Of a stretch of 64,000 nt of DNA, positions 48,164 to 56,765 are shown piece after piece. Every line of letters starts with the position of its first letter. The stretch's first letter is position 1. The notes beneath the pieces were generated by a model. It was not told where the DNA came from and did no database searches. It saw only the letters and a program-made list of their open reading frames with translations. The stretch comes from Planctomycetota bacterium (GTDB lineage Bacteria; Planctomycetota; SZUA-567; H5-PLA8): the NCBI GenBank assembly GCA_038227875.1, contig JBBRPR010000006.1:128001-192000 (forward strand), given 5' to 3'. Made by a program: the position numbers and the translations under genes.

Positions 48164-48273
48164 AAGAGTTGTTTGCTTGCACCTCACTAGTGACCTGTTA
48201 ACTTTTGCACTCGTTCAACACCGCCAAAGTCGCTCCAGTCAGGCCTGAGCGCAAACGAGAGGGGACAGGCCTA

Positions 48274-50229
48274 ATGTCGCCGCACATCCAGGTTTTACAC
48301 GTCCGTAAATTCGCAACAGTCATGCTCCTGTGCGTCACCGCGCTTTTTGCATCGCCAAGTGTAGCAGAAGAGAAACAACCTCCCGTCCAAACGTCACCTA
48401 ATCCGACACCAAAGGCGGAATTGGTAACACAACCCGCCGATGGATCGAAAACCGAGCAACCCCGGAGCCAAGGCGGACAGAATCCGACGGAAACTAAAAC
48501 CGACGCTCAAAAGAAAATCGAAGCGTCGATGGACCACCTGTCACCTGTGCGCCCGAACGCCGTTTTTCTCGCGGTTGATGAATGTATTGAAATTGCCGTA
48601 CAGAACAATCTGGGGCTGCGCATCAACCGGCTCAGCGACCGTGAAGTGGACATCACTGTCCGCACGGCCTGGGCGCAATATTTTCCGGAATTCAGCACCG
48701 GAATTCTGCACTCCAACAATGCGCCGAAACCAAGCAACGTCCCCGGCCCGGAAGTCGCCGGCGTCTCGACGACAGACAACGCCGGAACCAACGAAATCAG
48801 CGGCGGATTGACGCAGAGATCGCCCTACGGCACGACGCTCGACTTCAGCATCAACGAAGCGCGCACCAGCTTCGACCGCCACGAATCGAACGGCAGCTAC
48901 GGCGTCAACATCACGCAGCCGCTGTGGAAAGGCGCGAGCCTCGACGTGGGCCTGAAGAACATCCGCCAGAGCCGCATCCGCCGCTTGATCTCCCGCGGCT
49001 CGCTGGAACTGGATACACAATCGCTGATCTTCCAAGTCCGGCAAGGCTACGCGAACATCATCCGCCAGAAGCAGAATCTCGATGTCGACAACCAAGCCGT
49101 CGTCACCGCCAAGACGTTTCTCGATCTCACCGCCGCGCGCGAAGCCGCCGGACAGGTGACGAAGCTCGACGTCTCCAACGCTGAAGTGCAGCTGCAAAAC
49201 CGCCGCTTGAGCGCCCTGCAGGACCGCCAGGCGCTGGAACTGGCGCTCGACCAGTTGAAGATCCTGATGGACGTCGACCTGGAAGAAAACATCGGCATCG
49301 ACGCGCCGGCGGTGGACTTTGGTGACAAGATCGAAGAAGGCGTCACCAAGGAACTGATCATGAACCGCGAAGAGGGCACCGTCGCGCTGGAAATTAAAAA
49401 GAACAACCAGGCGGTCGGCGCGCCTCGCGAACTGTTCCGCGCTCAGCGCTACGACGAAAGCGTAATCCTGGATGAAGCGCTGAAGAACCGCGTCGACCTG
49501 CTCAACTCCCGCCGCGCCGTGGCCGTCCAGAAGCTGGAGACCGCCGCCGCCAAGAACGGACTGGGCCACGAAATCGACCTGGTGGGCAGCTACGGCCGCT
49601 CGATGGCCGGGCATTCGGTCATCGAAAGCGACAACGGTTCGGAGGCGCATCACTGGTCCTATGGCGTGAACGCCAAGATCCCGTGGGGCAAGATTTCCGA
49701 CCGCGGCATCTACGAGAACGCGCTGCTGGAAGTCGAGAAGTCCGAGATCGCGCTGAAGGGTGCGCGTACGAGCGTTCAATCCGACGTCCGCAACATCCTG
49801 CGCAATATCCGCGTCGCCGAAGAAAGTTTGCTGATCCAGGGCCAGCAGGTGGAACAGGCCAAGCGCTCGGCGGAAGCCGCGCAGATCAGTTTCGAACGCG
49901 GACTGCAGAGCAGCTTCGACGTAATCAATGCTGAAAACGCGCTGCTCTCGGCCAAGCGCGGATTCATCAACAGCCGCCTCGACTACTTGATTTTCATCGC
50001 GCAACTGGAGCTGGTCGTCGGCAAGCCGACCGGCCGCGTGAATCTGGAAGGCCAGTCCGTCGGCGGCCTGATCGATTCGCACATCCCCGAAGAGCTGCGC
50101 GAGAAGGGCATGCCCAAGCGCGCCCCCGAGGCCGATGCAACCGATAACGAAAACCCGTGGAACAAGAGTCGGCAATACCGAAACGACTACAAGCCGGACC
50201 GGCGCAATCCGGTGTCGCCGGAGAAGTGA
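48274..50229 (+). CDS. TolC-family outer membrane protein
   Basis: ECIEIAVQNNL, ITQPLWKG, AL.NR.DL, FERGL...FDV. Confidence 0.88.
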   Translation: MSPHIQVLHVRKFATVMLLCVTALFASPSVAEEKQPPVQTSPNPTPKAELVTQPADGSKTEQPRSQGGQNPTETKTDAQKKIEASMDHLSPVRPNAVFLAVDECIEIAVQNNLGLRINRLSDREVDITVRTAWAQYFPEFSTGILHSNNAPKPSNVPGPEVAGVSTTDNAGTNEISGGLTQRSPYGTTLDFSINEARTSFDRHESNGSYGVNITQPLWKGASLDVGLKNIRQSRIRRLISRGSLELDTQSLIFQVRQGYANIIRQKQNLDVDNQAVVTAKTFLDLTAAREAAGQVTKLDVSNAEVQLQNRRLSALQDRQALELALDQLKILMDVDLEENIGIDAPAVDFGDKIEEGVTKELIMNREEGTVALEIKKNNQAVGAPRELFRAQRYDESVILDEALKNRVDLLNSRRAVAVQKLETAAAKNGLGHEIDLVGSYGRSMAGHSVIESDNGSEAHHWSYGVNAKIPWGKISDRGIYENALLEVEKSEIALKGARTSVQSDVRNILRNIRVAEESLLIQGQQVEQAKRSAEAAQISFERGLQSSFDVINAENALLSAKRGFINSRLDYLIFIAQLELVVGKPTGRVNLEGQSVGGLIDSHIPEELREKGMPKRAPEADATDNENPWNKSRQYRNDYKPDRRNPVSPEK

Positions 50230-50246
50230 CGCGGAATTCAAAATTC

Positions 50247-50273
50247 AAAAACGCACGCGGAAGTGAGCGTGCG
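50247..50273 (-). terminator. Intrinsic terminator on minus strand
   Basis: Minus strand CGCACGC-TCACTTCC-GCGTGCG-TTTTT. Confidence 0.65.
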
Positions 50274-50345
50274 ATGGGTGCGCAGGCGCTAGAGTAGTAG
50301 ACGTCCGCTCATCCGTGTTTTGCGCACCCCCTCGGGGAACCCCAC

Positions 50346-50373
50346 AACCCTGTCGTAAATTTACGACAGGGTT
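50346..50373. repeat. Perfect 28-bp palindrome
   Basis: AACCCTGTCGTAAATTTACGACAGGGTT; variant at 30817-30842. Confidence 0.85.
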
Positions 50374-50480
50374 AGCATCTGGTTTGCCGGGTTTTATCTT
50401 TTGACCACCGGTCCAAATTTGACACGTGTAACATTTGAAGCGTTTGCACGGGGTGAAGTACCACACTTACTTCATAGGTA

Positions 50481-50510
50481 AATGTGACCGAATGTTACAA
50501 AATGTTACAT
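50481..50510 (-). repeat. 3 x 10-bp direct repeat
   Basis: Plus strand AATGTGACCG AATGTTACAA AATGTTACAT, the reverse complement of the 3501-3530 motif. Confidence 0.75.
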
Positions 50511-50562
50511 GAAACGCGGGGTTTTCAATTTCCCGTACAACAGCGTTGTTGTACCTCGGATC

Positions 50563-50608
50563 GTATCGCGGGCGTTCCGGGTTGCTTTGGGCGGGACGCC
50601 CGCGATAC
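50563..50608. repeat. Short REP-like doublet
   Basis: GTATCGCGGGCGT ... GGGCGGGACGCCCGCGATAC; shares the GGGCGGGACGCCC core with the MITE family. Confidence 0.7.
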
Positions 50609-50667
50609 ACTCTCTGGGCACGACCGGGCTATTCAGTTTTCAGAGAACAGTGGTAGTTCAACTAATA

Positions 50668-50696
50668 ACTATAGACCGTGAAATGGGTGAAGTCAA
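50668..50696 (-). promoter_or_regulatory. Sigma70-type promoter with AT-rich UP element
   Basis: Minus strand TTGACT-N17-TATAGT, preceded by TAATATTTATTTAACATA. Confidence 0.7.
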
Positions 50697-50802
50697 GACA
50701 TATGTTAAATAAATATTAGGTATTCTCTCGGTCGATTTCCAAAATCACCTTGACCACGCACAATGCGATGCTACATTGTGCATGCGGTTTGAGGGCTGTC
50801 AC

Positions 50803-51324
50803 ATGAAACGACTACCTTTCTTCATCGAGGTCTGGGAGAGCGGCAACAATGCCGAGCTCCGGCTCTGCCAGAAAGTGATGACGCGGCTGTTCAAGCAGGG
50901 TATCGCCCCCCTCCCCTTTGCCACGACCCCGCGCGAAGTCGGCGATGTCGTTCAGGCGCTCCGCAAGCAGCGGATGGAGCCGGCGCTGTTCATCGTCAAC
51001 ACGTTCTGGGCCGAGACGACGCTGCCGGATCTCGACCCTTATATGGGCGAAACGCCGGTGCTGTTCTTCCGCCGCGAGCTTTTCACGCCGAAGGAAATTC
51101 TCGGCCAGGATCCCAACCGCGGCAACACCACCGCGACCATCCGCAACATGACCCCGCGCGAATGCTCCGTCTGGTGCTTCGGCGCGAAGAACACGGACAC
51201 CATCGCCGACCGCGCCGCCGGTGCCGTCGCCAAGTATTTGCAGGACGGCGTGTTCGCCAACATCGAACGCATGAATCCGACGCAGTCGGTCGGGATCGGT
51301 GCGAGTCGACGCGCGTTTGAGTGA
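50803..51324 (+). CDS. Hypothetical protein, paralog of 14594-15091
   Basis: Whole-length similarity to the 14594 ORF; upstream TTGACC-N16-TACATT with extended TG. Confidence 0.85.
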   Translation: MKRLPFFIEVWESGNNAELRLCQKVMTRLFKQGIAPLPFATTPREVGDVVQALRKQRMEPALFIVNTFWAETTLPDLDPYMGETPVLFFRRELFTPKEILGQDPNRGNTTATIRNMTPRECSVWCFGAKNTDTIADRAAGAVAKYLQDGVFANIERMNPTQSVGIGASRRAFE

Positions 51325-56335: not shown

Positions 56336-56502
56336 GGTGGGATCCTCAAGGGCGCCATCAGTTGTATAGATGACCTTCATATAATATGGGCGAATTAGAC
56401 GTCCTAATTGCGCTTTACATCCGCGAACACCAAGGCAACATAAGCCTCGTACTACCTTTGGAGATCGCGCGGTGTTATGGCGACAATTGCATAGCAGCCC
56501 AG

Positions 56503-56602
56503 GCACTAGGGGTGGCCCAGTCAACGAATTGGCGCGAAAGCGCCGGGCCTGAGATTCAAACCCTTTGAACCTGCTTCAGATAGCACTGGCGAAGGTAAGT
56601 GC
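56503..56602 (+). promoter_or_regulatory. TPP riboswitch
   Basis: GCACTAGGGGTG...CTGAGA...CCCTTTGAACCTG...GCGAAGGTAAGTGC immediately upstream of thiC. Confidence 0.92.
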
Positions 56603-56765
56603 GGGCACCCACGACTCTCCGGCGCGAAGCGCTTTCGGGTGGATCGTGTGTGATCTCCGTATCGGTCTCTTCTCCTTTATAATTTGTGCTCTTCTGATTC
56701 GCTGCGAGCAGTCGCGCCGTAAGACCGTGTCGCAAGCCCGGACCCCATTCAGGACAGGAGAGTGA

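Follow-up and report, generated by a model that had tools for sequence, protein, structure and literature searches.

The spacer that follows a TolC-like gene in a 64,000-nt stretch of DNA from a Planctomycetota bacterium (assembly GCA_038227875.1, contig JBBRPR010000006.1, positions 128,001 to 192,000; the whole stretch is called the window below) holds, on its minus strand from 50718 to 50247, what is almost certainly one copy of a lineage-restricted non-coding transcription unit. The unit combines a promoter, a boxA motif of the type found in ribosomal RNA (rRNA) leaders and a 128-nt core, and it recurs about 25 times in the genome. What is such a unit for? The reading favoured here, tentatively and with a probability of roughly 0.45, is a stand-alone regulatory or decoy RNA that is antiterminated through boxA and bounded by a terminator. 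The new aspect is boxA-led untranslated transcription in the form of a dispersed, multi-copy unit. An initial annotation, made from the letters of the window alone, had proposed a single novel non-coding RNA gene. All the elements it listed are present on the minus strand where it had placed them, but the single gene has turned out to be one of some 25 copies.

The copies were found in the window's own assembly, which comprises 9.3 Mb in 176 contigs and is 88% complete (contigs are written as C and a number, the window copy lying on C6). As this metagenome-assembled genome (MAG) is incomplete, all copy numbers are lower bounds. A BLAST self-search with the 573-nt spacer returned 54 matches, and their coverage of the query is a mosaic of repeat modules: a promoter/boxA part with 6-8 copies, the core (50554-50427) with 23-42, the 28-bp palindrome, and a terminator part with about 10-30. 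Core copies of at least 80 nt number 25, at 71-89% identity. A sequence-only profile built from 14 copies then detected 25 full-length copies at E <= 1e-19 and four half-copies, two of each side, and the full set consists of 25 full copies plus two copies split by insertions. Promoter and boxA are tied to the core. What is called 'module A' here begins with an AT-rich tract, continues with TTGAC-N17-TATAGT or TATTAT, whose spacer is conserved, and has a boxA-like motif about 20 nt further on; all 22 matches of an nhmmer profile of it in the genome precede a core by 60-230 nt and share its strand (20 full cores and two left halves). The spacer between boxA and core measures 35-141 nt and is unalignable, with strong hairpins in copies. 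Because the same arrangement recurs about 25 times, its occurrence in the window is more than chance, and homologues that retain promoter, boxA and core, whose absence would have spoken against the initial annotation, do exist in the source genome. The 28-bp palindrome and the terminator, which that annotation had counted as parts of the unit, occur elsewhere without the core and belong to other, unlinked repeat families.

Module A opens in the window copy with an AT-rich tract that resembles an UP element, 5' of the -35 hexamer (50699-50718, minus strand as all features of the unit; aligned in about 20 copies). The sigma-70-type promoter TTGACT-N17-TATAGT follows at 50668-50696; it had been picked out from the letters and is also called by a consensus scan, with 10/12 consensus positions, and its spacer sequence is kept among copies. 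Promoter-like sites in a 2-kb scan number 3, against 0.7 +/- 0.8 in shuffles. Transcription would start near 50661, which puts the motif GTTCTCTGAAAACTGAATAG (50629-50648) about 13-32 nt past the predicted start. Is this motif a boxA? It is identical at 14/19 positions to the boxA of the genome's own 16S leader (C38:677), which agrees with the boxA-like site first annotated, and the same motif is found in the 16S leaders of three same-family genomes (G006, G014, G001). The site at C38:677 was located with a 19-nt probe from the 16S leader of G006, which it matches with 2 mismatches, and the genome's 16S 5' end lies about 260 nt downstream. The leaders of G006 and G014 are similar to the family consensus (CTCTGACAAC..CATAG), those of G001 and C38 to the window variant (..GAAAAC..). 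Genome sites with at most 4 mismatches to the probe number 23, eight of them upstream of cores. By a strict regular expression boxA stands upstream of 14/25 cores, and by eye in the alignment of about 21/25; three cores with no module-A match still carry it (C23, C9 and C2:140753). The window motif lies on the same strand as the promoter, downstream of it and ahead of an RNA with no conserved ORF (open reading frame), and sequence and position support its assignment as an rrn-type boxA and candidate NusB-NusE site. Two published studies describe how NusB-NusE binds to boxA in the RNA, from where an elongation complex resistant to Rho is built up (PMC3177189, PMC4807359). The region C38:1-1100 (minus) is a contig end that carries about 417 nt of the 16S 5' end, its leader, a promoter-like TTGACA-N17-TAAGTT and the boxA; a whole-genome Rfam search for 16S rRNA (RF00177) gave no match in the assembly despite this 16S 5' end. 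Another boxA-like motif, at C59:18411 (-), has 4 mismatches to the rrn boxA of a relative and is intergenic, and no class-1 core comes after it.

The class-1 core occupies 50427-50554. It opens with the palindrome GTACAACA/TGTTGTAC (50535-50554), and its order is GTACAACA-N4-TGTTGTAC, GGAAA, about 18 variable nt, three GTAACATT-type repeats at a 10-nt period, CCTATGA, about 7 variable nt, GTGGTACTTCACCCCGTGCAA, about 8 variable nt, and AAATGTTACA, which is the inverse of the repeat. The three direct repeats of the window copy read GTAACATT TT GTAACATT CG GTCACATT (50481-50508). Conservation comes in blocks: 68 of 152 columns are at least 93% conserved in a 30-sequence alignment, and the spacers between them are scrambled. 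Distances are kept all the same. The palindrome centre and the third repeat are 56-57 nt apart in 24/25 copies, the exception being short by exactly 10 nt, and the third repeat and the inverse copy are 54 nt apart in 23/25. The core blocks are under selection, and their spacing is rigid. Are they conserved as helices? The predicted 415-nt RNA of the window copy (50661-50247) folds at -153.8 kcal/mol (z = -5.62), with 0/100 shuffles as stable. Across copies, none of 26 RNAalifold pairs showed a double change among 14 sequences, the covariation term was +0.1 and the consensus energy of the core alignment was only -10.6 kcal/mol; many pairs never vary, which leaves the covariation test little power for those pairs. 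Departures in the palindrome stem GTACAACA/TGTTGTAC amount to 14 mismatches versus 2 wobbles in 30 sequences, and the inverted repeat TGAAGTA/TACTTCA (50474-50468 / 50460-50454), noted by sequence inspection, is not kept in most of the 30. With no covariation and with stems that are not kept, the core blocks appear to be conserved as sequence at fixed distances and not as helices, and the stacked hairpins of the initial annotation do not amount to a conserved RNA structure.

Does the unit encode a peptide, or belong to an RNA family already described? The first reading of the letters saw no convincing ORF, and indeed no ORF is kept across copies, and Pfam is blank on four short ORFs of the region. 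The sole frame across the conserved core blocks (GTG TGG TAC ...) is broken by 1-nt indels in several copies, and the window copy has ATG AAG TAA, which hits a stop at once; a coding reading was rejected. Rfam 15, applied to the window at gathering score, has no family at the unit; at E <= 10 on 50100-50900 the sub-threshold matches include nothing meaningful, and 20 related loci gave 0 matches. The Rfam comparison suggested with the annotation has thus brought no known family to threshold. No tRNA or tmRNA was found near the units in 25 contexts. The portions of the literature that a search brought up contain no description of such units.

The direct repeats of the core also lead a life outside the units. 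The genome has 81 pairs of GTAACATT spaced at a 10-nt period, and 37 triplets lie outside cores. A co-oriented gene starts 4-316 nt downstream of 33 of these 37, and a divergent gene start is found within 500 nt of only six. The genes behind them are diverse (ParB, trigger factor, DnaG, RtcB, Asd, IspF, an extracytoplasmic function (ECF) sigma factor, kinases, HtrA, ExbB), with examples at C3:120113 (parB), C24:63597 (trigger factor) and C70:41728 (dnaG). In the 1 kb upstream of the 37, a boxA-like motif turned up only once. Since the triplet thus stands in one orientation, and with no boxA, ahead of at least 33 unrelated genes, the boxA-led units are most readily read as regulatory or decoy RNAs; since boxA, an RNA signal, goes with the core and not with the triplets near genes, we favour a function that lies in the core as transcribed. 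A GTGCACC..AAGGAG..CCCC block was seen ahead of many non-core triplets.

How far does the triplet reach? Its pattern GTAACATTnnGTAACATTnnGnnACAT has at least 72 loci, many per genome, in a species collection with one genome per species. Among the matches listed, most carriers are Dehalococcoidia or MAGs of Tepidisphaeraceae, Humisphaera and Phycisphaerales. In one Tepidisphaeraceae MAG the modules stand in tandem, use other words (GTTGCATT, GTTCCATT) and each lie beside a poly-G run. CCTATG was considered as a second block common to these phyla and given up, as it stands beside the triplet in only 4/35 Dehalococcoidia and 0/27 Phycisphaerae-type loci. The triplet was also noticed, among the matches listed, in the form of longer 10-bp arrays in Bacteroidota, Omnitrophota and others. 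The window's own genome has further arrays at this period: 12-16 GCTCATTnnn repeats stand directly upstream of another conserved promoter-like sequence, TTGATT ... TATATA (for example C14:135094-135260, C21:117160-117340 and C27:10895-11010). This promoter signature has 21 sites in the genome, and at nine of them a like-oriented GTAACATT triplet follows after 300-1150 nt.

What kind of factor could read the triplet? A MraZ-type operator likewise consists of three direct repeats that lie close to a promoter with a period of 10 bp, and three TAGTGA/TAGTGG words with this period precede the genome's mraZ, downstream of a promoter-like site and ahead of the start codon (C12:140626-143790, about 1165-1200 of the locus); from their sequence and place they are probably the MraZ operator of this organism. 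The genome has only one gene with a MraZ domain. A MraZ operator was rejected for the triplet, as the word next to mraZ is TAGTGA/TAGTGG and not GTAACATT, and unlike a MraZ-type operator the unit triplet has dozens of sites. As the mraZ array is alike in period and layout, the architecture of the triplet can be called MraZ-operator-like while its word is not a MraZ box. Promoter readings were set aside as well. Spacings, compared by eye with the consensus, do not fit sigma-54 or ECF promoters. A sigma-70 promoter with the first repeat as -35 and the third as -10 reaches only about 8/12 positions, again by eye; it leaves the conservation of the middle repeat over and fails for the other words of the Tepidisphaeraceae MAG. 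PUF-type RNA-binding proteins, the sole RNA-binding domain looked for, gave no PF00806 match at E <= 1 in the genome.

It seems reasonable to sketch the following sequence of events for the window copy. RNA polymerase would start near 50661, and boxA in the nascent RNA would recruit NusB-NusE(S10) and partners, which would let elongation over the untranslated RNA resist Rho. Transcription would then stop at the intrinsic terminator (50273-50247) and yield an untranslated RNA of about 415 nt that is antisense to no gene body. With less confidence we infer that the core acts through sequence-specific recognition by a factor and not through a conserved fold, and that the roughly 25 units may be regulatory or decoy RNAs for a factor working at the gene-proximal triplets. 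Extended to a global circuit, the idea becomes doubtful: some 25 strongly promoted, boxA-antiterminated decoy RNAs, each with three GUAACAUU sites at a 10-nt period and one inverse site, would titrate a factor that works on the same triplet in the leaders of at least 33 housekeeping genes. Such a circuit, equally doubtful, would include parB, tig, dnaG, rtcB and asd and would follow a Csr-like logic with another motif, another protein and rRNA-type control of transcription. Like CsrB/RsmZ-type small RNAs, the predicted RNA of a unit would carry several copies of a motif that also stands ahead of many unrelated genes, with a strong promoter and no ORF; the unit differs from them in having only three direct copies and one inverse copy, of an 8-mer at a strict 10-nt period. 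To our knowledge, about 25 gene copies would be far more than in known Csr/Rsm-type systems.

The closest likeness is to an rRNA operon leader, which also has an AT-rich tract with a strong sigma-70 promoter, and a boxA like that of the genome's own 16S leader, followed by untranslated RNA. The unit differs in the place of its boxA, close behind the predicted start, whereas several hundred nt separate boxA from the promoter-like site in the 16S leader of the organism itself; no rRNA or tRNA comes after it, its payload is the 128-nt repeat-bearing core, and there are about 25 copies. Outside rRNA, boxA elements in CRISPR array leaders and in the suhB leader, the subject of work by Stringer et al. 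in 2020 and Baniulyte et al. in 2017, are reported to govern termination by Rho on RNA that is translated poorly or not at all. Papers also link boxA, CRISPR arrays and Rho. These leaders and the unit have in common a boxA on a non-ribosomal, poorly translated or untranslated RNA; the unit is instead short, dispersed and multi-copy, and neither a CRISPR repeat-spacer array nor cas or suhB genes accompany it. Were the stand-alone RNA to be confirmed, an entire family of short non-coding units unrelated to the ribosome would be using rRNA-type boxA/Nus antitermination, and the known range of the mechanism would widen. If that reading holds, the GTAACATT triplet would link about 25 units to more than 30 unrelated housekeeping genes. 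Together with the many copies of the triplet in MAGs of Dehalococcoidia and Phycisphaerae, this suggests a sequence-specific factor not yet described, whose regulon would be large. The units also offer about 30 natural variants on which the roles of boxA and core could be tested.

Several observations weigh against a stand-alone RNA. A co-oriented gene lies 177-1448 nt from the core start in 16/25 units, so many copies may simply be long leaders. The terminator of the window copy comes from an unrelated repeat family and stands 18 nt past the stop codon of the convergent TolC-like gene, and it may therefore primarily serve tolC. Terminator-like hairpins behind the cores in general found no support: hairpins in the 110 nt 3' of cores averaged -19.1 kcal/mol, versus -16.6 in 100 random genome windows, which is no clear excess in strength. 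To these is added the lack of compensatory changes described above, and the near-invariant spacing, the 10-nt period and the near-palindromic repeat word fit a platform on DNA at least as well as an RNA. At many of the listed Dehalococcoidia and Tepidisphaeraceae loci a promoter-like site 40-90 nt off reads, by eye, towards the triplet on the other strand; at the Dehalococcoidia loci an ORF then follows, also by eye. What of expression? In one metatranscriptome, available as contigs, 50448-50586 is matched by a contig of 151 nt that differs at 3 positions and has 12 unmatched letters at one end; a second contig covers 50141-50277, and a separate 37-nt piece falls on the repeats. Being strandless contigs of depth 2 from an RNA library, in which DNA carry-over is possible, they are a hint only, and gaps in their coverage carry no information.

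Could the unit work in cis? A portable cassette of promoter and leader would provide any downstream gene with a strong promoter, with a boxA to shield a long untranslated leader from Rho, and with a regulatory core; the window copy, which faces tolC, would then be an orphan whose RNA does nothing by itself. This is possible, though on balance unlikely. Gene calls from a codon-usage model trained on 837 long ORFs make the next downstream gene co-oriented in 16/25 units and convergent in 9/25, and the co-oriented majority is what a cassette would have; the 16:9 split is, however, indistinguishable from chance orientation. The nine convergent copies keep promoter, boxA and core intact, two of them with a gene end within about 10 nt of the core, and the subfamily of the window copy (C6 and its closest paralogues C78 and C7) is convergent in 3/3 cases and has in common an extra segment 3' of the core. 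The unit needs no downstream gene. Other facts sit better with a cassette: the triplet alone is gene-proximal and oriented in 33/37 cases, orthologous copies stay ahead of the same genes in related contigs, and three cores with no module A (C14, C2:140753 by regular expression, C9 by reading) lie 550-1150 nt behind other conserved promoters in the same orientation, which suggests long multi-promoter leaders. No protein family is common to the unit flanks, where clusters arose only from overlapping loci or chance pairs. If the units were only promoter-leader cassettes, they would still be useful for annotating the long gene-less spacers of such genomes.

Or does the core act on DNA? As a nucleoprotein platform it would be a protein-binding array, whether operator, decoy or architectural, and its transcription would be secondary. 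We regard this as unlikely, although the core looks the part: its palindrome, its three direct repeats, each one helical turn from the next, and the inverted copy 54 bp further along keep a near-invariant spacing despite scrambled spacers, covariation is absent, and the degeneracy of the palindrome is half-site-like. The mraZ array (3 x TAGTGA at a 10-bp period) has the same architecture, the arrays of 12-16 GCTCATT repeats at a 10-bp period adjoin another conserved promoter, and in other phyla the triplet has, by eye, the other orientation to promoter-like sites. A DNA site, however, needs neither promoter nor boxA, yet 22/22 promoter/boxA modules are tied to cores, and boxA, an RNA signal, is kept even where the promoter type differs. 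Moreover, the genome's canonical MraZ box is a different word, and no binding protein has been identified for the core.

A selfish dispersed repeat with no host function, like a miniature inverted-repeat transposable element (MITE) or a repetitive extragenic palindromic (REP) sequence, would carry promoter and boxA as mere passengers, and is improbable here. The family is multi-copy, intergenic and lineage-restricted, and it has palindromic parts, as REP sequences, their bacterial interspersed mosaic elements (BIMEs) and MITEs do; the genome is rich in other short intergenic repeat families, and the window copy is itself a mosaic of repeat modules. Restriction to the lineage is marked. BLAST found no copy in 30 relatives, the only match being one of 25 nt to the spacer hairpin in a single genome; the profile found no unit in 16 other same-family genomes (0/16), and the exact core pattern had 0 matches in the species collection. 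Metagenome contigs gave 16 loci with the core pattern, of which seven are true homologues (L018, L020, L022, L024, L025, L027, L030); the other nine were discarded as unrelated AT-rich sequence. Three homologues are orthologous to copies in the genome: L025 to C37, L020 to C14 and L024 to the C12+C52 pair. As L025 and L020 have their downstream flanks in common with C37 and C14, copies stay at orthologous sites while their spacers diverge. Such old copies (71-89% identity), with block-wise conservation and fixed spacing that neutral decay would not be expected to leave, differ from MITEs and REP/BIME elements, as do a promoter and boxA of the unit's own and its occupancy of orthologous positions; no terminal inverted repeats or target duplications were seen, by eye, at the aligned unit boundaries. 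Block-wise conservation together with orthologous copies reflects selection and not recent spread. The non-coding mobile unit that the initial annotation had offered as its other option comes close in one respect: the family is dispersed in about 25 copies with promoter, boxA and core kept together. By the features checked, the unit is not a MITE. Finally, an ordinary intergenic region, made of a tolC terminator (18 nt past the stop), the next gene's promoter (a plus-strand promoter-like site at 50750-50777) and chance palindromes, is hardly credible for an arrangement that recurs 25 times with conserved promoter, boxA and core and whose terminator T-run lies on the minus strand.

Some units have been hit by mobile DNA. 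One is split, its left half (C12:2497-2573) adjoining a 392-aa tyrosine integrase (PF00589, E = 2.7e-21) and its right half (C52:37536-37627) lying 3.3 kb from another integrase match; the break falls in the second and third repeats, and L024 is the intact orthologue. This C12/C52 copy, and not the window copy, has the features of an attachment site (attB) for a tyrosine recombinase, and the unit offers a conserved target that one or more integrase-bearing elements have used. Of the other two halves, the left one (C26) has a weak integrase-like ORF nearby and the right one (C16) borders on AT-rich DNA. Integrase proximity by plain count was discarded as a general association: 2/27 integrase matches are within 2.5 kb of a repeat pair, versus about 1.4 expected, and it is the junctions alone that are telling. 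L027 and L030 are two different units cut at different internal points by the same end, which resembles that of an insertion sequence and comes after the end of a transposase-like ORF.

There remain the parts of the window copy outside module A and the core. The variable spacer between boxA and core holds a long hairpin (50563-50608) with a 13-bp perfect stem (50608-50596 / 50575-50563); the sequence had been annotated as a REP-like doublet and is present, though as one long hairpin and not a doublet. The segment 3' of the core (50374-50426) is common only to the two closest paralogues, C78 and C7. It is followed by the perfect 28-bp palindrome with an AAATTT centre (50346-50373, no strand assigned), a member of a separate small repeat family that is also on C78 and C10. 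Perfect palindromes with variable arms and this constant AAATTT centre were seen in the window (50346-50373), on C78, C10 and C53, in the C2:15406 region and at C4:94145. A long-range inverted repeat, GGGTGCGCA ... TGCGCACCC (50276-50329, arms 50329-50321 / 50284-50276), is part of another separate repeat, 'module D'. The minus-strand intrinsic terminator at 50247-50273, proposed from the letters and called by a terminator scan too, has a 7-bp stem with 6 G-C pairs, an 8-nt loop and T5. The unit lies on the strand opposite to both flanking genes, which are the OEP/TolC-like gene (48205-50229, plus strand) and a 173-aa ORF with no Pfam family (50803-51324, plus strand). The promoter-like site at 50750-50777 would serve this ORF and is back to back with the unit promoter. 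Elsewhere in the window, a thiamine pyrophosphate (TPP) riboswitch at 56498-56614 (+) passes the gathering score with 55.8 bits and is the sole Rfam match.

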